64,000 bases of DNA. It comes from Spirochaetales bacterium. GTDB taxonomy: Bacteria > Spirochaetota > Spirochaetia > JABEVK01. The position numbers and the translations under genes are program-made. Below are positions 18,206-24,609 of this stretch, piece after piece (positions within the stretch are counted from its first letter, which is position 1; every line of letters begins with the position of its first letter). The notes below the pieces were generated by a model that was not told where the DNA came from, searched no databases, and worked only from the letters and a program-made list of their open reading frames with translations. Location of the stretch: contig JBAXAI010000011.1 of the NCBI GenBank assembly GCA_037142615.1, positions 1 through 64,000 on the forward strand, in the 5' to 3' direction.

Positions 18206-19573
18206 TTACTGGGCCAACACTAAGTCAACTTCGGCGATGGCGTCGCTCAACGCCTTGAGGAACTTCGCGGCGGGGGCGCCGTCGACCACCATGTGGTTGA
18301 TGGTCAGCGACAGGCCCACACTGGGCAAAAACTCCACCCCGGCCTTGCCCTGCACGGGCTTAAGGCTGATGCCACCAACACCGAGGATGGCCACTTCGGG
18401 CACGTTGAGCACCGGCGTGAAGCTGTCGATGCCAAACGCGCCGACATTGCTCACGCTGAAGGTGCTGCCGGTCAGGTCGTCGGGCTTGATGGTGCTGTTG
18501 CGGCAAGCTTCGGCCAGACGCTTCGTCTCGTCGCTGATCTGCTTCAGGCTGAGGCTATCAGCGTTGCGGACGACGGGAACCATGAGACCGCGGGGGGTGT
18601 CACAAGCCACGCCGATGTGCACGTCGCCGAACTCAATGATGGTGTCGCCGACTTTGTGGGCGTTCATGTACCCAAAGCGCCGGAGCGTGCGGGCCGTGGC
18701 GAACACGATCAGGTCGCCAATGGTGACGCCCTGTAGGCCGAGGCTGGCGTCGCTGGCCTTGAGCCGGGCGCGCAGTTCCTGCAGGCGAACGGCGAGCGCG
18801 GTGGCGTTGAGCGTGAACTGCGCCGTTGTGCTCAGGCTCTCGGCCATCCGGTCGGCGATGACCTTGCGGATGCCCTTGATCTTGGTTTCGGTACGGCTGC
18901 CAGGAGCGCGGACAGGAGCAGCAGATGAACTTGGCGCCGCCGAAACTGCAGCTGGTGCATTGCCCACGTCGGCCGCGAGAACCCGGCCGCCCAGGCCGCT
19001 GCCACGGGCGGGGAGCGCCACACCGGCGGCGAGGGCCGCTTCGAGGGCAGCAGCGGTGGCCGGAGCCTTGGCGTCGAGCACCGCGCGCACGTCGCGTTCG
19101 ATCACGCGGCCTTCCGGGCCGGTGCCGGTCAGTGACGTGGCGTCCACACCCTGGGTAGCGGCCAGAAGCCGGGCACGGGGCGAGGAAAAAGAAGCTCCGG
19201 CGGCGGCGATGGAGGACGCTGACGCCGGAGCGGAAGGAGCCGTGGGAGAGGCGACCGACACAGCGGCCGTGGGAGCAGCCGAACCGGTAGCGGGGCTGCC
19301 GCCCGAGGTGGCCAGCAGCGTGGCGATGTCCTCGCCAGGCGTGCCGATGATGGCGATGGGCAACATGACGGGCACGTCGTCGCCGGCGTTACGGACCTGC
19401 TTCAAGATGGTGCCGGCGAAACCGGCTTCGACTTCGAAGGACGCCTTGTCGGTCTCGACGTCGGCCACGATGGTCTTGGCGGTCACTGCATCGCCCTCTT
19501 TCACGCGCCAGGCGATCAGAAGGCACGATTCAACGCTGTTCCCCTGCCGGGGCATGACCAGAACTTCTGCCAT
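18206..19573 (-). CDS. dihydrolipoamide acyltransferase (E2)
   Basis: Lipoyl motif VETDKA, two E3-binding-like segments, catalytic NHMVVDG; ATG 19573. Confidence 0.92.
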   Translation of the reverse strand: MAEVLVMPRQGNSVESCLLIAWRVKEGDAVTAKTIVADVETDKASFEVEAGFAGTILKQVRNAGDDVPVMLPIAIIGTPGEDIATLLATSGGSPATGSAAPTAAVSVASPTAPSAPASASSIAAAGASFSSPRARLLAATQGVDATSLTGTGPEGRVIERDVRAVLDAKAPATAAALEAALAAGVALPARGSGLGGRVLAADVGNAPAAVSAAPSSSAAPVRAPGSRTETKIKGIRKVIADRMAESLSTTAQFTLNATALAVRLQELRARLKASDASLGLQGVTIGDLIVFATARTLRRFGYMNAHKVGDTIIEFGDVHIGVACDTPRGLMVPVVRNADSLSLKQISDETKRLAEACRNSTIKPDDLTGSTFSVSNVGAFGIDSFTPVLNVPEVAILGVGGISLKPVQGKAGVEFLPSVGLSLTINHMVVDGAPAAKFLKALSDAIAEVDLVLAQ

Positions 19574-19588
19574 AGGTCTTCCTTTATG

Positions 19589-19641
19589 GTTTCGAAATGC
19601 TTTCGATTGGCTTACGATATACCTTCCCCTGAATTTTGACA
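19589..19641 (-). promoter_or_regulatory. sigma70-like promoter with three 11-bp-spaced CG(A/T)AA(G/C) repeats (putative DeoR operator)
   Basis: Minus strand TTGTCA...TATATCGT, then CGTAAG/CGAAAG/CGAAAC at 19611-16, 19600-05, 19589-94. Confidence 0.55.
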
Positions 19642-19687
19642 AGAGGAAATTGTCTCTGGGCACGAAAAGTGTCTGCGGATTCACTCA

Positions 19688-19726
19688 ACCTGCCAAATCT
19701 GGACTCGACATCCAGATTTGGCAGGT
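19688..19726. repeat. perfect 16-bp inverted repeat, 7-nt loop
   Basis: ACCTGCCAAATCTGGA-ctcgaca-TCCAGATTTGGCAGGT. Confidence 0.85.
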
Positions 19727-19832
19727 AGCTGCACCTTGAGGAGAATTGGGAGGATTTTGGTTTGGCGCATTCGGTCCTGGTTGCGAGACGCATAACGCAC
19801 CGAGAAACGTATTGGCCAGAGGTCGGGCCACG

Positions 19833-20818
19833 TCAGTCTGCAGCTTGACCCTCGGCGTAGATTTGCTTCTGGAACCTTTGCCGAAAATCCGCAAGCGAGT
19901 AGATGCTTTCCTCGAACAGGCCGTACCCCATGAAGTTGGAGGTGGCGATCCTGATTTCAGCTTTGTGACCTAGGGGGAAATATTCCAGGTCTTCCAGTTT
20001 AGCTAGTTGTTTCTCCAAGATGGAAGATCTAGGGTGCAGGTTCGCAAGTAGCAAGATGAACTCGGGCTTGTCCTCGCTGAACCCAGCGAACCCCTGCGGG
20101 GCGTCGATCAGACTGAGTTCAACCTTCTGCCGAAAGATTGAGACTAACTCTTCCTTGAGGTTTCGAACGGCGGCTTTATCAGCCAGGAACTTGTTGAGGT
20201 CCCGTACATGGTCGACAATTCCCGACTTTCCTTCCTGCAAAGCATCCTTTCCAAACTTCAGCTCCATCAGAGCCAACCTAAGTCCGCTGGTCTTCCTTCT
20301 TGCGTTTGACGTGGATGGCCACTTCACACCCGCCAAATCATACCGCGCCTTACCCTTAACGTACTCGGTATCGCAGATATAGTAGTCCGTGTTCTGACCT
20401 GCGTATTTCTTCGCGTCAGCGTCTTTCTTCGGCTTCGTGCCCCTGTTGTTCTCACGGACAATGAGCTGCTGGCATTCCTTTTCTCGGTTATCACGGATTT
20501 CTGTGAAGTAGAAGTCAATCGTCGACTTGATGAGTGGAATTACCTTAACCCAGCCTGCAACCGCGTCGGGCGTGCCAACCTTCCCAGGCCGAGGCATCCA
20601 GGAAGGCACGAGTTCTCCCTCGAAGTAGTTGCCCGTGTGTTGGAAGCGATAGCCATCGAGCTCCGAAATCTCCAGAAGACTCCCCCCCGGTAATAAATCG
20701 TTACTTGGTTTTCCCGAATCTCCAGATTCAGTGTTGAGTCTTTCTGCACGTACTCCAAGATTGGTTGAAGCACGCCGCCTTTAAGGGCCTCCATAAATGT
20801 CTCACTCAGCTTTCGCAT
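19833..20818 (-). pseudogene. PD-(D/E)XK-like nuclease-fold protein, frameshifted at G7 tract
   Basis: ORFs 20540-20818 and 19833-20609 join (YYRGG-SLLEI...VPSWMPRP) if one G is added at 20682-20688; DTEY...RYDLAGV...LMELKFG motif. Confidence 0.7.
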
Positions 20819-20852
20819 GGTTCACTCCTCGAAAATTGAATCCCTGTTAAGT

Positions 20853-22472
20853 CTAGGCAGATTGCCTCATGAAGGCTACCTGATAGGCCAGCAAACTGTA
20901 GGCGAGGCTATGGCTTTTCATGAACGGTCGCCCTCCGGCCTGGACGAGGCGTTCCCAAACGGGAAGGGCAATATCCACGGCAAAGCCATTCGTGACCGCG
21001 GCTTCGACGAAGTTTGCCTTGGCTGGCTCTAGTGTCGCCGGGACTTGACGGAAAAGGACCCTACGAAGCGTCTCTGCCTCAGCCACGCCCAGCGCTGTCA
21101 GGTGCGCGACGATCTGGAGGACTTGCTCTTGGTAGACAAGAACGCCCCGAGTGCTATCGAGGATTGGAGCCAGCGGATCAGGCGTCTCATCGGGTGATGC
21201 GAGGCTTTTCGGTGCGTCGCAGTAGGCCGAAAAGGCTTCGTCGCCACCGGGTCGACACAGAGCATACACCACAGACAGCTCATCCAGAGTCCTGGGCTGC
21301 ACCTGCCGCAGCCACGCCCTGATTTTCGGAGACTCGAAGCCGAACACGCCTTCGGTTTCGCCATTCGCAAATGCGTTCCAAGTCGCTTGGTCATCCAAAG
21401 GGACCCCAGCCTGTGGTACGTCATCCAGTGCATCGAGGCCGAGAAGGTCGAACTTGATCAACCCGTGCAACTCAAGATCCTGGAAAGCACACTGAGGGAC
21501 CAAGCCTTCATGGGTGGGGTCCCAGAAGGATGCGAACTGGTCACTCAGGGGCCACGCAGAAACAATCACACCGCACCCGTGACAGGCGACATCGGCGACT
21601 CGATCGCGACCCCAGCGCTCTTTGAGATAGGCGACCACTTCGGTCCTTCTAGCCGCGCTCACATCAACATCGATATCGGGGACCACTGAGACACCAGGGT
21701 TGAAGAATCGCTCAAACAGCAACCCGTGGGCGAGAGGGTCGACGGCTGTAATCTTCAGGGCGTAGGCCACCATCGAGCCGGGTGTCGTACCGCGACCGGG
21801 CCCGACCGCAATTCCTTGGCTTCGTGCCCAAGCCAGCATGTCGGCCCAGATGAGCAGGTAGCTCGCCCAACCTCGGACGCAGAGTCCTGCCAATTCAATT
21901 TCAGCCCGCTGCTGAATCTCAGGAGTGACCACCTGGAACCGTTCGGCGAGTCCCAACTGCACAAGCTGGCGCAAGTACTGCTCGGTGGTCCCCACAAACC
22001 CGGGGGGAGGGAGAAACTCCGGCAACTGGATTTTCGGTTGGAGGACCTCCCAGAGGTAGCGCCGGGCCAACTCCTCGACGGTCTGCGGTGACAGGCCCTC
22101 ACTTGTGGTATTTCGCAGGATCACCAAATCGTCGTCTGCGAGCCCCAACTCGTCTTTCGTCAGATGCCGCTCGGACCTCGGATGGCGGGCGAAGTGGGTC
22201 GAAAGCTGCTGAAGGCGGCGGAACCCGGCCTCAGAGTGGACAAGCACCAACGACGTTGTGGGGTCGTCGGGCCCGGTGATCGGGAACTCGCAACCGATGA
22301 GGGGCAAAATGCCGTGCTGTTGGCAGGTGACCACGAACCGTCTGACACCGAACAAGGTGCCCTTGCCGAGGAGTGCGAGGGCTCTCAGACCGTGGGCCTT
22401 CCCGGCGGCGACGAACGGTGGAATCTCCCTGGACCCTTTGTTGACGGAGCTCAAACAGAGTGTGGGTTGCAT
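20853..22472 (-). CDS. miniature DnaE-like (C-family polymerase) protein, 539 aa
   Basis: GPGRGTTPGS, LLFERFFNP, PDIDVD, KFDLLGL, GVFGFES, LVYQEQ, FMKSHSLAY; AAGGAG RBS before ATG 22472. Confidence 0.85.
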   Translation of the reverse strand: MQPTLCLSSVNKGSREIPPFVAAGKAHGLRALALLGKGTLFGVRRFVVTCQQHGILPLIGCEFPITGPDDPTTSLVLVHSEAGFRRLQQLSTHFARHPRSERHLTKDELGLADDDLVILRNTTSEGLSPQTVEELARRYLWEVLQPKIQLPEFLPPPGFVGTTEQYLRQLVQLGLAERFQVVTPEIQQRAEIELAGLCVRGWASYLLIWADMLAWARSQGIAVGPGRGTTPGSMVAYALKITAVDPLAHGLLFERFFNPGVSVVPDIDVDVSAARRTEVVAYLKERWGRDRVADVACHGCGVIVSAWPLSDQFASFWDPTHEGLVPQCAFQDLELHGLIKFDLLGLDALDDVPQAGVPLDDQATWNAFANGETEGVFGFESPKIRAWLRQVQPRTLDELSVVYALCRPGGDEAFSAYCDAPKSLASPDETPDPLAPILDSTRGVLVYQEQVLQIVAHLTALGVAEAETLRRVLFRQVPATLEPAKANFVEAAVTNGFAVDIALPVWERLVQAGGRPFMKSHSLAYSLLAYQVAFMRQSA

Positions 22473-23710
22473 GAGGGTACTTCTCCTTTTTCGAACACGA
22501 TGGGGTCGCCGTCTCGGCAGTTCAAAACCGGAACCCCGAACTGATGGAACCGCCCAGGAGCTTCGGTGTGGATGGGAAGCAAACTCCTCGGCTGCAGCCC
22601 CTGAACGAGGGCCGCCAAAGTTGCGACGTCGGCGTGGCCGCTGGTATGGGCCATTTCGGGGGCAACCCCACGAGAGCCGAGGAAGTCGATCAGAGGCTTT
22701 GTGGAGGGCTCTTCGAGATACCCGGCCCACTGCGACCACAAGAACAACGAACGGGGCCCCACCTCGAGTTTCTGTAATTCCGCGAGCATATTGGGCCTGA
22801 CAAGGACGAGGTAACGGCCGGGGTGAGACTGGAGGTTCTGCATTCGAGTTTTGAATTTCGCCCAGCGCCCAACCCGGGACATCGTGACGTGCCGGAGCGC
22901 CCACGCGGTCAAGCGGCGTGGAAACCAAACACCGAGACCGGGAAACCTGGGAGCCGGAACTGGCAGAGCCGCAAACTCGGCCGCCACGCGCAACACTTCA
23001 GCGGCATACACGTCGATGACAAAGGTTCGGCCGCTGTGGCGTGCGGCCTTGTAGAGCGTCACCATCCGATCGAGGTTTTGGGCTGAGCAGGCCACCAGGG
23101 CAAGCCCCGAGGTGGTACGGAGGCGGTCGTAAATCTGCTCCTCGAGTTCCGTTTCCAAGAGGTTCTGCCCCGTAACCCGCCCAAGCCCCGTGCCCTCCAT
23201 CAGCAAGGCGTCGACGGCTTGCGGAGGCTTGTCCAGCAAGCGCTGGAAAAGTTTGCCCTTGCGTCCGTTACGCCGAAAATCGCCCGAGTAGAAGAGGCGA
23301 GTTCCGCCGGCTTCGACCAGAAACGCATACGAGTCAAAGGCAGAATGGTCCATCGGGAACGGTGTGACGGTGAAAGGGCCGATCGCAAACGGCCGCTGGT
23401 CCGTGAAAGTTGTCCACGTGTCGAGGCTCAACTCGGTCAACCCGAACTCTCGGTTCAAGCGGATCAGGCGGGCGGTGGCTTCGCTGCAGAAGACCGGTGC
23501 CGCAGGGCTCAGGGTGGCCAACAGCCCAAAGTGGTCCGCGTGGGCATGGCTGATCAGAACGGCGTCAAAAGCCGTCCCCACCAAGGCAGGAATCGAGTTG
23601 TAACCCGCAAGCGGCAGACCGCAATCCACGAGAATCCGGGAGTCGCCCTGCCGAAGTTCGACGCACGAGCCGCCTATCTGATGGGTACCGCGATGGATAG
23701 TTACAGTCAT
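22451..23710 (-). CDS. MBL-fold beta-CASP hydrolase, RNase J-like
   Basis: IGGSC, SHAHADH, DHSAFD, YSGDFR, LMEGT, HTSGHA, PIHTE. Confidence 0.9.
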   Translation of the reverse strand: MTVTIHRGTHQIGGSCVELRQGDSRILVDCGLPLAGYNSIPALVGTAFDAVLISHAHADHFGLLATLSPAAPVFCSEATARLIRLNREFGLTELSLDTWTTFTDQRPFAIGPFTVTPFPMDHSAFDSYAFLVEAGGTRLFYSGDFRRNGRKGKLFQRLLDKPPQAVDALLMEGTGLGRVTGQNLLETELEEQIYDRLRTTSGLALVACSAQNLDRMVTLYKAARHSGRTFVIDVYAAEVLRVAAEFAALPVPAPRFPGLGVWFPRRLTAWALRHVTMSRVGRWAKFKTRMQNLQSHPGRYLVLVRPNMLAELQKLEVGPRSLFLWSQWAGYLEEPSTKPLIDFLGSRGVAPEMAHTSGHADVATLAALVQGLQPRSLLPIHTEAPGRFHQFGVPVLNCRDGDPIVFEKGEVPSCNPHSV

Positions 23711-23719
23711 CTTGGCGCG

Positions 23720-23747
23720 ACTGTACCACGGAACGTGCAGTTGTCAA
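23720..23747 (-). promoter_or_regulatory. sigma70 promoter, near-leaderless transcript
   Basis: TTGACA-16 nt-TACAGT with extended TG, 9 nt upstream of ATG 23710; no SD. Confidence 0.6.
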
Positions 23748-23776
23748 GCTTTGGCGGGAAATCCGAAAATCTCCCC

Positions 23777-24532
23777 CTACACCAACCTGACGTCGAGCCC
23801 CAGTTCCTGCAACGCCGGGATCTGAGCGGCGGGAAAGTCGGTGTCGGTGATGAGCAGGTCGATCTTTTTGAGCGGCATGATCGACACAAAACCCGAGCGG
23901 CCGAACTTTGACGAGTCGACCACCAGGATGCGCTTTTCGGCCTGTTCGGCCATGGTCTTCACCATTTCGGCGCCCTCGACGAGGTGGGTGGTCAGGCCCT
24001 TTTCGAGCGTGAAGCCGTCGGTGCCCAAAAAGGCGAGTTTGACGTTGAAGCGGCGGATGGTGTCGAGCGCCAGGGGGCCGACAAACGACTCGTTGGCGCT
24101 GCGGAACTCGCCGCCCACCATGGTCACCTGCAGCGACGGGTTGGCACGCACGTAGGGCAGCACCAGCGTCGAGTCTGTCACCAGGTGGATGTGCCCCTTG
24201 CCCAGCAGATACTTCACCACCAGCGCCGTCGTGGTTCCGGCCACCAGCATGACGGTGTCGCCGTCGTTCACCAGGTCGGCTGCCGCCTTGGCAATGCGGT
24301 TCTTTTCGTCCACACGGTAGCTTTGCCGCTCGAGAACGCTGCGGTGAAAGGCCAGGTGGGCCCCCCCGTGCGAGCGCACGATGACGCCCCGCGAGGCGAG
24401 ATCCTTCAGGTCGGCCCGGACGGTGACATCCGACACCGCGAGAAGCTTGCCCAGTTCGGTGACCGACACGTTGGGCTGTTCGGTGAGCGTCTGGAGAATA
24501 AGCTTTTCGCGGGCGGTCAGGCTTTCGAGCAT
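23777..24532 (-). CDS. DeoR/GlpR family transcriptional regulator
   Basis: VSDVTVRADL HTH, RSHGGA, EKNRIAKAA, AGTTT, DSSKFG. Confidence 0.93.
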   Translation of the reverse strand: MLESLTAREKLILQTLTEQPNVSVTELGKLLAVSDVTVRADLKDLASRGVIVRSHGGAHLAFHRSVLERQSYRVDEKNRIAKAAADLVNDGDTVMLVAGTTTALVVKYLLGKGHIHLVTDSTLVLPYVRANPSLQVTMVGGEFRSANESFVGPLALDTIRRFNVKLAFLGTDGFTLEKGLTTHLVEGAEMVKTMAEQAEKRILVVDSSKFGRSGFVSIMPLKKIDLLITDTDFPAAQIPALQELGLDVRLV

Positions 24533-24609
24533 GGCCCTAGTATACGCAAACCGGGTTGCCATGGAACCCCCGCTTGCCCGGGCGCCCTCGGTTCCACTAT
24601 GTTGGGAAC

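Follow-up and report, generated by a model that had tools for sequence, protein, structure and literature searches.

Three kinds of enzyme offer the closest described comparisons for the locus considered here. The first is the replicative polymerase Pol III alpha (DnaE1), a protein of about 1160 residues solved from E. coli (2hnh), T. aquaticus (2hpi) and M. tuberculosis (7pu7), together with DnaE2 (ImuC), its non-essential paralogue in the ImuA-ImuB-DnaE2 mutasome, which is encoded in an accessory operon and has an inactivated PHP site. The second comprises the beta-CASP metallo-beta-lactamase (MBL) enzymes, among them EF2904 (2az4), RNase J, SNM1A, Apollo, Artemis, and Cas14 of type VII CRISPR. 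The third is formed by the PD-(D/E)XK effectors of defence systems (HamA of Hachiman, NucC of CBASS, SduA of Shedu, and Cas4), which carry an E...D...D...ExK signature.

In the window, by which we mean the whole 64,000-nucleotide stretch of a freshwater spirochaete contig that was analysed, relatives of all three are encoded by co-oriented genes on the minus strand of an insert of about 4.1 kb (Table 1), where the first-pass annotation had placed them. That annotation had taken the cassette for an acquired unit of a polymerase and two nucleases matching no described system, and this interpretation is supported. In the PADLOC comparison it had called for, no system model was matched, with no family of PADLOC-DB v2.0 (2023) reaching E ≤ 0.1 for any of the four open reading frames; 33 homologues of the PD-(D/E)XK partner gave just weak PDC-S11 or Cas4 matches, in at most 3 of the 33, and literature searches returned no named system corresponding to the cassette or to its nuclease pair.

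Table 1. Features of the cassette and its flanks, in window coordinates
Feature	Coordinates	Strand	Basis or remark
Inserted segment: whole cassette plus 3′ spacer of ~200 nt	19625..23776	-	Empty sites in relatives, flank homology
DeoR-family regulator (flank; host gene outside cassette)	23777..24562	-	
Promoter-like site TTGACA-16-TACAGT, TG before the -10	23720..23747	-	10/12 consensus matches only
Beta-CASP MBL-fold hydrolase, 419 aa (P0003)	22451..23710	-	Pfam, NCBIfam
Mini-DnaE, 539 aa (P0001): PHP stump, palm, inner fingers	20853..22472	-	Pfam, alignment, model
Third gene, N-terminal part in starting frame, MRKLSETF...IYYRGG	20689..20818	-	Aligns with N-termini of intact homologues
G7 run (C7 on plus strand), frame break	20682..20688	-	Sequence
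Third gene, C-terminal part in shifted frame, PD-(D/E)XK core	19833..20681	-	Open frame, five invariant residues
Perfect 16-nt inverted repeat, 7-nt loop	19688..19726	.	~107 nt past stop of third gene
E2 acyltransferase of 2-oxoacid dehydrogenase operon (flank; host gene)	18206..19684	-	

An acquired insertion between host genes

The cassette is a horizontally acquired insertion, because relatives have the empty site: deoR is followed directly by the E2-E3-E1 genes in all three same-genus genomes that carry the locus (G402, G403 and G404), and likewise in G030, of the same class. The left boundary of the insert is the deoR stop, at 23777, and on the right the homology with the G403 flank resumes at about 19624. 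The placement proposed earlier, between a DeoR regulator and a sugar operon, is thus correct for the regulator and not for the operon, which is a 2-oxoacid (acetoin/pyruvate-type) dehydrogenase set composed of E2, E3 and a fused E1. The GC content is 0.51-0.53 over positions 19600-20999, in agreement with the third gene having been described as AT-richer, and rises to 0.57-0.63 across the MBL and mini-dnaE genes and to 0.60-0.73 in the flanking DNA.

Within the insert the genes are tightly arranged, as had been noted, with the ATG of mini-dnaE overlapping the end of the MBL gene by 22 nt, and the third gene starting 34 nt after the polymerase stop, at an ATG (20818) preceded by a GAGGAG ribosome-binding site 7 nt upstream. 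The promoter that had been attributed to the cassette is found as a putative site, recognised by its match to the consensus; the region holds five sites of such quality against a mean of 1.0 in shuffles, and just 9 nt separate the end of the -10 element from the MBL ATG, which would leave room for a very short leader at most. The inverted repeat beyond the third gene, which is not followed by a T-run, is possibly a terminator or an operator.

All three genes also co-occur elsewhere, since a sister Logan/ENA contig of 12,093 bases carries homologues of the MBL (72% identity), of mini-DnaE (64%), and of the PD-(D/E)XK protein (47%), the last being intact at 328 aa.

The nuclease pair

The MBL protein matches Lactamase_B_2 (E 9e-19) and RMMBL (E 6.6e-6) in Pfam, and it carries both the MBL motifs 1-4 (HxHxDH, H, D, H) and the beta-CASP motifs A (D/E), B (H) and C (H/V, here His); across 15 family members the residues H55, H57, D59, H60, H122, D144, D167/E172, H355 and H381 are invariant. 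In profile comparisons its best solved relative is 2az4 (E 4e-40), followed by RNase J (E 2e-31), with matches also to CPSF73, Cas14, Apollo and SNM1A. The fold implied by the earlier label “RNase J-like MBL” stands, and the protein is not itself an RNase J, as it scores below the curated cut-offs (49 bits against 400 for TIGR00649; 40 against 820 for RnjA). It is moreover shorter than RNase J (419 against about 550 residues), has no C-terminal dimerisation domain, and belongs to a family paired with a PD-(D/E)XK gene.

The third gene is split over two frames, as a 92-aa open reading frame (20540-20818) and one of 258 aa (19833-20609), by a homopolymer previously given as G8, which reads G7. 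One extra G would restore the frame, because intact homologues read IYYRGGS, or YYRGGI, through the run. All 33 sequences compared from the partner family share five residues (E122, D147, D158, E183 and K185, that is, E, D, D, ExK), and the window gene keeps each of these in its shifted frame (EKECQQ, ICDTE, RYDLAG, MELK), the catalytic D...(D/E)xK and the upstream acidic residue included, from which the assignment to PD-(D/E)XK proteins made at first reading appears sound. Pfam holds no family for the window or the sister protein. The AF2 model of the latter (pLDDT 89) has mostly PD-(D/E)XK nucleases as its best Foldseek matches, none of them at E ≤ 0.001 in the PDB, with a weak resemblance (prob 0.4-0.7) to SfsA, FokI, NucC and HamA, and a few family members give weak profile matches to SduA_C, HSDR_N_2 and Cas4. 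The signature is common to HamA, NucC, SduA and Cas4; unlike them, the partner possesses its own N-terminal beta-rich domain, and its companion is an MBL enzyme instead of a helicase or a cyclase.

With this gene out of frame at G7, the system would be switched off, phase-variable, or mis-assembled at that point. A further explanation is that the cassette was transferred and is here a decaying, non-functional remnant, of which the frameshift is the first visible lesion; this would agree with the lower GC of the third gene, with the same truncated product being on record from two assemblies, and with the sole contig covering the run, which also has G7. However, we consider it highly doubtful, firstly, because the lesion is single and lies in a homopolymer, with the five invariant residues intact downstream of it, and also because the other two genes are intact, the changes in a strain variant are mostly synonymous (17 synonymous against 10 non-synonymous codons in mini-dnaE), and near-identical contigs come from runs of three studies (P1-P3), run X1 possibly being the source sample.

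Together, the MBL and PD-(D/E)XK genes are a conserved, widespread and unnamed two-gene module. Among 80 MBL loci drawn from many phyla, 39 have the partner directly alongside in the same orientation, and unfiltered HMM scoring of neighbouring open reading frames adds six pairs (45 of 80); the pair is also found in G204 and G409, and the partner profile reaches 4158 cluster representatives (50% identity) at E ≤ 0.001. To judge by the sister contig, the partner diverges faster than the MBL. The distribution is patchy: an MBL homologue is absent from four of four congeners (80-99% complete) and present in one of 11 genomes of the family, while 400 other Spirochaetota genomes yield 18 family-type matches (20 at E ≤ 1e-30, two of them RNase J-like). 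Family-level MBL genes (30-40% identical to the query across 91% or more of its length) are present on some ten plasmid records, in one case adjoining restriction-modification genes, and on an Ochrobactrum plasmid an AddAB-like pair adjoins the module. No close MBL homologue was found in 50,697 phage records, and IMG/VR gave only 11 loci. In a neighbour tally made without a matched background, the pair is accompanied by Wadjet, DISARM, MADS, PARIS-like and BREX-related proteins, by integrases and resolvases, and by WYL regulators (3 of 145 neighbours), DnaB_C and RNase_T (twice each). The pair recurs in places beside defence-related genes, a point that the first-pass annotation had asked to be checked; in the window the flanks of the insert are housekeeping genes, with no defence island. 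That a pair so common and plasmid-borne should yet have neither a Pfam family nor a PADLOC system model gives it an interest of its own.

The polymerase core and its repeated capture

What is new in the cassette is the gene between the two nucleases, which adds to the pair a Pol III alpha core in reduced form, and the short DnaE reported in the first-pass annotation is indeed such a core. Its Pfam matches are DNA_pol3_alpha (E 1.5e-45), the finger domain (E 8e-30) and a partial PHP, with no match to PF14579 or PF01336. The predicted model (pLDDT 85.6) aligns in Foldseek with the solved Pol III alpha structures at E 5e-31 to 5e-29 (TMq 0.80-0.85; 0.85 for 2hnh), with which it shares a homologous PHP-palm-fingers core, the dNTP-binding basic residues and the catalytic Asp triad, which in E. 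coli we take to be D401, D403 and D555. In the numbering of that protein, both the window and the sister copy retain D401, D403, D555, K553, R390, R362, R709, R710 and K758. For the GPGRGS and K-x-D-x-LGL motifs, which together with the Asp triad mark the palm of C-family polymerases, G363 is also present and S364 is replaced by T. This conservation, the fit of the model and the synonymous excess in the strain variant indicate that the gene is not a decaying fragment. What has been lost, in contrast, is (i) the thumb, presumably about 433-510 in E. coli, as nothing in the window or sister copy aligns to 431-508, which should weaken the binding of duplex; (ii) half of the PHP domain (122-242), the metal ligands being gone, with two of ten ligand columns kept; and (iii) everything from 778 to 1160, the protein ending at position 777, before the outer fingers and the clamp-binding, HhH, OB and tau-binding parts. 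Judging from its sequence, this 539-aa core with intact active-site residues would be a natural minimal C-family polymerase, which may help to clarify the roles of the thumb and PHP domains, and which is possibly a useful enzyme.

Unlike Pol III alpha, mini-DnaE is the product of an acquired insert, where its gene is flanked by those of two nucleases, and the host keeps its own dnaE. It resembles DnaE2 in being accessory, in the loss of the PHP site and in a possible link with damage. However, it lies outside the DnaE2-like clade of the tree, its neighbours are the MBL and PD-(D/E)XK genes and not imuA and imuB, and it is much shorter, scoring 218 bits against a cut-off of 939 for the NCBIfam error-prone polymerase model; identity with DnaE2/ImuC was accordingly rejected.

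C-terminally truncated DnaE copies stand beside the MBL in at least four other cases, namely the sister contig and three spirochaete genomes, with lengths of 785 aa (L022), 776 aa (G032) and 828 aa (G126), and all of them end at E. coli positions 777-794. They have separate origins: the G032 and G126 copies are closest to the dnaE of their own hosts (74% and 69% identity, SH-aLRT 100), and a single clade for the two is rejected (p-AU 7.5e-33). The L022/G401 copy has lost D401, D555, K553 and R390, so that polymerase chemistry is not essential in every version, and of the ten PHP columns nine are kept in G032, three in G126, four in G401, two in the window and four in the sister copy. The polymerase is a lineage-restricted add-on, absent from 79 of the 80 loci and from 15 of the 17 spirochaete loci; the nuclease pair forms the conserved core. 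The separate and repeated capture of host dnaE at one truncation point constitutes a rare and clear case of convergent recruitment, in which an essential replication gene enters an accessory system.

The common end of these copies lies near the FNKSH motif, presumably where cyanobacterial dnaE is split, and in L022 the MBL is followed by a DnaB_C-like gene; the copies could, on these grounds, be N-terminal halves of a split (intein-type) dnaE, or part of the replication module of a mobile element. We give almost no credence to this, as the copies end in ordinary stops, their last residue lying 14-31 residues past the KSH motif, and carry no intein sequence, every genome examined has a full-length dnaE of its own, the window insert holds no replication initiator or integrase, and the near absence of the MBL from phage and IMG/VR records does not suggest such an element.

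Possible functions of the cassette

Our tentative interpretation, held with slightly less than even confidence, is that the operon, built on the two-nuclease module, is a self-contained DNA-processing system of plasmid or defence-island type, acting on foreign or abnormal DNA. We infer the order of the enzymatic steps, the substrate, a physical association among the three proteins and a role in defence as follows. The PD-(D/E)XK enzyme would make a cut, the beta-CASP enzyme would then resect from the end, and the mini-polymerase would bind or extend the 3′ end at the primer-template junction, either sensing such junctions or carrying out short fill-in synthesis. Since it has kept the nucleotidyl-transfer site, and has no proofreading site, thumb, or clamp- and tau-binding parts, it would work off the replisome.

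The same components could instead form a damage-induced module for the repair or tolerance of DNA damage, in which incision by the PD-(D/E)XK enzyme is followed by beta-CASP exonuclease digestion beyond the lesion or crosslink, and the gap is filled by the proofreading-deficient core, by analogy with XPF/SNM1A plus a translesion polymerase, or with the mutasome. The induction would come through the HTH-WYL-WCX regulators that L022 and L131 carry within their DnaE-nuclease operons, as WYL fits a DNA-damage response equally well; the retained polymerase site, with the PHP proofreading ligands lost in four of the five truncated copies as in DnaE2, points in the same direction, and so do the AddAB-like, DnaB_C and RNase_T neighbours. 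But WYL regulators control defence systems too (CRISPR-associated in PADLOC), the window cassette has no WYL gene, the G401 copy is catalytically dead, and mini-DnaE falls outside the DnaE2-like clade, to which must be added the strain-specific distribution and the Wadjet, DISARM, MADS and restriction-modification neighbours. Repair thus seems to us possible, if on balance unlikely.

The capture of host dnaE raises a question that can be tested, whether the polymerase serves for synthesis, for the sensing of DNA ends, or as bait. As a bait mimicking the host replicative polymerase, in a form of abortive infection, the truncated DnaE would be bound by a phage protein directed against Pol III alpha, releasing both nucleases. 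We regard this as quite improbable, because the window and sister copies are just 25-41% identical to the DnaE of the window host, which makes for poor mimicry, and keep catalytic residues that a bait would not need, because the nuclease pair works without a polymerase in most genomes, and because no phage product that inhibits Pol III alpha is known to us. A broader version, also improbable though a little less so, is that the nuclease pair of spirochaetes has repeatedly domesticated a host-polymerase core as a bait or sensor guarding Pol III alpha, the copy being cut from the replisome at one boundary each time and kept similar to the host gene, once by gene conversion, so that the nucleases would be triggered when replication is attacked or when a primer-template end is abnormal; if true, this would make a C-family replicative polymerase, for the first time, the basis of an immune or surveillance system. 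In favour of a bait are the constant removal of the replisome-tethering domains, the dispensable catalysis of G401, the closeness of the G032 and G126 copies to the dnaE of their own hosts, in separate clades, and, in G126, a stretch of some 160 codons with 97-99% nucleotide identity to the host gene 6 kb away, beyond which the truncated dnaE is 58-90% identical to it.

The insertion between deoR and the dehydrogenase operon

Comparison with related genomes shows that the cassette is an insertion, that is, an acquired operon. In three genomes of the same genus (G403, G402 and G404), whose DeoR orthologues are 65–80% identical to that of the window, and in one of the same class (G030, 54% identity), E2-E3-E1 stand directly after deoR with nothing between; the first-pass annotation had proposed looking in relatives for an empty deoR-E2 site, and the site is empty in each of these genomes. 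Homology of the flank with G403 restarts at ~19624. A homologue of the MBL (the beta-CASP metallo-beta-lactamase-fold protein) is present in none of four congeners (genomes 80–99% complete) and in one of 11 genomes of the family, G409, accompanied there by the partner gene and not by the polymerase. A search of the insert ends revealed neither a target duplication nor terminal inverted repeats, and the flanks of the window are of the housekeeping kind (MscS-type channel, ArsP permease, thioredoxin, CheB-CheR-PAS protein).

Arrangement of the cassette and its neighbours, in the direction of transcription
Feature	Position or length	Strand	Remarks
deoR	23777-24562	minus	upstream flank gene
deoR-MBL spacer	66 nt	minus	contains promoter-like site
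beta-CASP MBL gene	22451-23710	minus	419 aa
DnaE-like gene (mini-DnaE)	20853-22472	minus	539 aa; ATG 22 nt inside MBL gene
mini-DnaE-third gene spacer	34 nt	minus	bears GAGGAG ribosome-binding site
Third gene (PD-(D/E)XK)	start 20818, stop 19833	minus	frame change at G7 run 20682-20688
Third gene-E2 spacer	~150 nt	minus	bears perfect hairpin 19688-19726
E2, E3, fused E1 of 2-oxoacid dehydrogenase	after third-gene spacer	minus	downstream flank operon

The first description of the cassette holds except on two points, since the G run of the third gene, counted as eight, has seven residues, and the downstream genes, taken for a sugar operon, are those of a 2-oxoacid dehydrogenase; its remark that the third gene is AT-richer is borne out by a GC content of 0.51–0.53 vs 0.57–0.63 in the MBL and mini-DnaE genes. 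The spacer after deoR holds a promoter-like site, TTGACA-16-TACAGT (23747-23720, 10 of 12 matches); the ATG of the MBL lies 9 nt past the end of the putative -10, no Shine-Dalgarno is visible, and if this site is used the MBL gene would be nearly leaderless. The inverted repeat before E2 (perfect, 16 nt, with a 7-nt loop) lies inside the insert and is followed by no T-run; it may be a binding site for a protein, or a terminator that shields the dehydrogenase operon. Upstream of E2, a 35-nt block (19590-19624) is 86% identical to that of the congener G403 (locus L177, 7283-7317), where it includes the palindrome TTCGAAAcgaTTTCGAA, a possible operator for DeoR at the dehydrogenase operon; through the insertion, 4 kb separate deoR from this block.

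The third gene begins in a frame that encodes MRKLSETF...IYYRGG and passes to another that encodes SLLEISELDG... up to the stop, at a position across which intact homologues read ...YYRGGS/I... uninterrupted. The sole Logan contig spanning the run (sequencing run X1, possibly the source sample) agrees with seven G residues; sequencing runs X2, X3 and X6 have no coverage at these positions. With its PD-(D/E)XK gene out of frame, the window genome may have the system switched off, and the frameshift itself may represent phase variation, decay or assembly error. In run X6, from another lake study, the contigs of a diverged strain turn into unlike sequence at 19686 and 20445-20489; thus, the third-gene region and the E2 junction are different or rearranged in that strain.

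The pair of nuclease-fold proteins

The MBL belongs to a large family (3974 of the 8000 candidates scored reached E<=0.001), mostly of 410–440 aa, ~40% identical and spread over many phyla; across the 15 members aligned, every one of the MBL and beta-CASP motifs is invariant. Among solved structures the uncharacterised EF2904 (2az4) is the nearest; RNase J, CPSF73, Cas14 and Apollo/SNM1A come after it. The window protein falls far short of the RNase J family cut-off (49 bits against 400) and, to judge by its sequence, is a beta-CASP enzyme outside that family.

For the third gene, word-based search retrieved only 32 relatives, and a profile of 33 diverse members retrieved 4158 representatives at E<=0.001, with 1173 at E<=1e-30, among 1.84 billion proteins; its E, D, D and ExK residues are invariant in 33 of 33 sequences. 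The AlphaFold model of the intact third protein of the sister contig is confident (pLDDT 89); most of the PDB structures nearest to it are PD-(D/E)XK nucleases (SfsA, NucS, FokI, NucC, HamA), with no match reaching E 0.001. No Pfam family was found for this protein and its neighbours in the ESM Atlas are unnamed; it is an unnamed PD-(D/E)XK family.

A genome-wide scan gave at least 579 confirmed relatives of the MBL, and 80 loci were retained. An ORF was matched by the first third-gene-family HMM in 27 of the 80 loci and by the iterated one in 39, always on the strand of the MBL (39/39) and abutting it in 35; unfiltered scoring of neighbouring ORFs in the remaining 41 loci added six more, and most of the others carry an unassigned ORF of 250–350 aa at the partner position. 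Among the 17 spirochaete MBL loci the partner HMM matches two, so that partners there lie beyond its reach or are of another kind; in L131, a spirochaete DnaE-nuclease operon, the 240-aa protein at this position aligns with the partner family in just the D...ELK motif (hhalign probability 0.15). These counts show that two proteins of predicted nuclease fold, with their catalytic signatures intact, travel together across bacteria.

Truncated DnaE proteins in spirochaetes

A search of 5.8 billion clusters gave a single full-length relative of mini-DnaE, P0004 (540 aa, 64% identity, 99% query cover), the matches after it being pieces of ordinary DnaE. For each of P0004, P0123 (a relative of the MBL, 72%) and P0243 (an intact relative of the third gene, 47%, 328 aa) the recorded source is a single Logan/ENA contig 12,093 bases long, and given the identical size and sources this is, most simply, one and the same contig. 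GTDB representative genomes gave no match to this sister, and the search of JGI metagenome contigs returned only L193, a 100%-identical piece of the window organism. Besides its own dnaE the host carries a DnaE2-like gene, and mini-DnaE is 28–42% identical to the two.

Mini-DnaE was aligned to E. coli DnaE for residue numbering, with domain limits and catalytic positions as in the E. coli protein. The window and sister copies span E. coli 11-121, 243-305, 316-430, 509-567 and 587-777; half of the PHP, the entire thumb and all past 777 are therefore missing. Both retain D401, D403, D555, K553, R390, R362, G363, R709, R710 and K758, and two of the ten PHP ligand columns survive in the window copy. 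The model of mini-DnaE (pLDDT 85.6, pTM 0.83) matches the Pol III alpha of E. coli, T. aquaticus and M. tuberculosis with TMq 0.80–0.85. The alignment shows what is by prediction a polymerase core without processivity and proofreading parts, whose active site is conserved; because three parts that define Pol III alpha were looked for and are lacking, it is a homologue and not a full member of that family. In the diverged strain of run X6, 27 codons of mini-DnaE differ, 17 of them silently, and two of the MBL, both silent, as read from low-depth contigs of one run. Mini-DnaE is a slimmed, conserved protein and not a fragment. A complex prediction for the MBL and mini-DnaE scored 0.00, which is uninformative either way.

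Most of the ~780-aa DnaE matches resemble ordinary DnaE1 proteins shortened by a frameshift or by the end of the contig. Two DnaE-like proteins of 782 aa on contigs of 47–68 kb, P0021 and P0091, end shortly after FNRSH, the same motif as in the truncated copies, and have the top local identity to mini-DnaE (52% over 27% of the query).

Such polymerase cores are, as the following loci show, repeatedly associated with this MBL in spirochaetes. L022 (Spirochaetes bacterium RIFOXYC1_FULL_54_7, genome G401) carries on a single strand a 785-aa DnaE, an HTH-WYL-WCX regulator, a 249-aa PD-(D/E)XK protein, the MBL and a DnaB_C-like gene; genome G032 carries a 776-aa DnaE, a WYL regulator, a 240-aa protein and the MBL; and genome G126 an 828-aa DnaE (pieced from two contigs through 107 identical overlapping bases), a BspA-type LRR protein and the MBL. 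A truncated DnaE thus stands at the MBL in two of 17 spirochaete loci in addition to the window, and in one of the 80 loci across phyla, that one also a spirochaete. All the truncated copies end at E. coli 777-794, just past the FNKSHxxAY motif, and the sole feature common to them is the loss of the replisome-docking C-terminus: the G032 copy keeps nine of ten PHP columns and the whole polymerase site, that of G126 three of ten and the polymerase site, and that of L022 is without D401, D555, K553 and R390. A split-intein dnaE was rejected, as the genes end in ordinary stops without intein sequence and a full-length dnaE is present in every genome examined.

The maximum-likelihood tree was calculated without two short rows, a partial piece of the G401 host gene and the C-terminal piece of G126. 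In it, the copies of G032 and G126 are each sister to the dnaE of their own genome (74% and 69% identity, SH-aLRT 100), and those of the window, the sister and L022 group together on long branches, a grouping to be read with an explicit long-branch warning. With groups chosen after the tree had been seen, topology tests rejected a single clade of all five truncated copies (p-AU 0.00087) and the joining of the G032 and G126 copies (p-AU 7.5e-33). A tract of ~160 codons in the G126 copy is 97–99% identical in nucleotides to the host dnaE, vs 58–90% in the rest of the gene, which indicates recent gene conversion; thus, the likeness between truncated and host genes may be due to independent duplication or to concerted evolution, the two not being fully separable. 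In the boldest reading, which we consider improbable, the polymerase copy would be a bait guarding Pol III alpha. This would fit the likeness of the G032 and G126 copies to the dnaE of their respective hosts, as well as the inactivated catalytic site of L022; it would not fit the window copy, which has diverged and is catalytically intact.

In G126 the nuclease system adjoins the host's own dnaE (L019 = G126:C75, L142 = G126:C67): on one contig the third-gene homologue lies ~2.6 kb, and the host dnaE ~4.5 kb, from the start of the truncated copy, and the contig break lies inside the ~160-codon repeat. Locus L157 (G244:C28) encodes, in an open frame of 917 codons, a further DnaE paralogue (913 aa) that groups with the other dnaE of genome G244, the MBL of which is on a different contig.

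Surroundings of the pair and its possible working

The cassette proteins have no match in PADLOC-DB v2, in line with the first-pass annotation, which had recognised no named system in them, and their NCBIfam and Pfam names stay at superfamily level. A search of the literature over listings and abstracts found nothing on the nuclease pair or on truncated DnaE in defence or accessory systems. According to a 2026 survey of bacterial polymerases, truncated C-family sequences were discarded before phylogenetic analysis (PMC12926913). Taken as a whole, the cassette stands among nuclease-based accessory systems as a novel form.

The same-strand neighbours of the pair loci (n=145) are spread over 145 different Pfam families, and just AAA (5) and WCX/WYL (3) recur, followed by families seen twice (integrases, resolvases, methyltransferases, REase-ARP, AAA_21, DnaB_C, RNase_T). 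PADLOC matches among them (E<=1e-10) comprise WYL, MADS mad2 and mad3, PDC-S48, JetC/JetD, DrmD, BrxH and HEC-05, as well as AriA-, IetA- and DolB-like ATPases; as a raw tally without matched control, these defence-gene neighbours are no more than suggestive. About ten plasmid records have a family-level MBL match, among them Rhizobium phaseoli pRphaN671a, where restriction-modification-type genes are followed by the pair, annotated merely as "MBL fold metallo-hydrolase" and "hypothetical protein." Sequenced phages gave no family-level match and 21 weak records, six of which cover at least 80% of the MBL query at identities of no more than 24%; IMG/VR contains 11 MBL loci. A phage replication module was rejected as an origin, there being no close MBL homologue in 50,697 phage records.

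We tentatively propose, at somewhat under an even chance, that the pair is a machine of the mobile or defence-island type that would cut and resect DNA (less likely RNA), to which the polymerase core has been added; mini-DnaE would recognise a 3′ end or primer-template, or carry out short fill-in synthesis. The main rival, which we hold to be somewhat less likely, is a damage-induced module of repair or tolerance; it would agree with the presence of WYL regulators and with a loss of proofreading like that of DnaE2.

On alphaproteobacterial plasmids (L102, 7516-7992; L103, 7092-7953), one or two small hypothetical ORFs of 131–159 aa stand directly before the MBL and overlap its start, and could belong, as a third component, to this branch of the pair. 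Brachyspira-like genomes carry a solo homologue of the third gene at a variable site, bounded by metK and recF, that looks like a defence hotspot. At this site (L017, L020 and L021, of genomes G194, G199 and G179) the solo homologue is joined by differing cargo in each genome: in L017 a 436-aa ATPase and a 169-aa protein, and in L020 paralogous proteins of 356 and 269 aa together with a 404-aa protein that has a nuclease-like N-terminus and a HEIGH motif.
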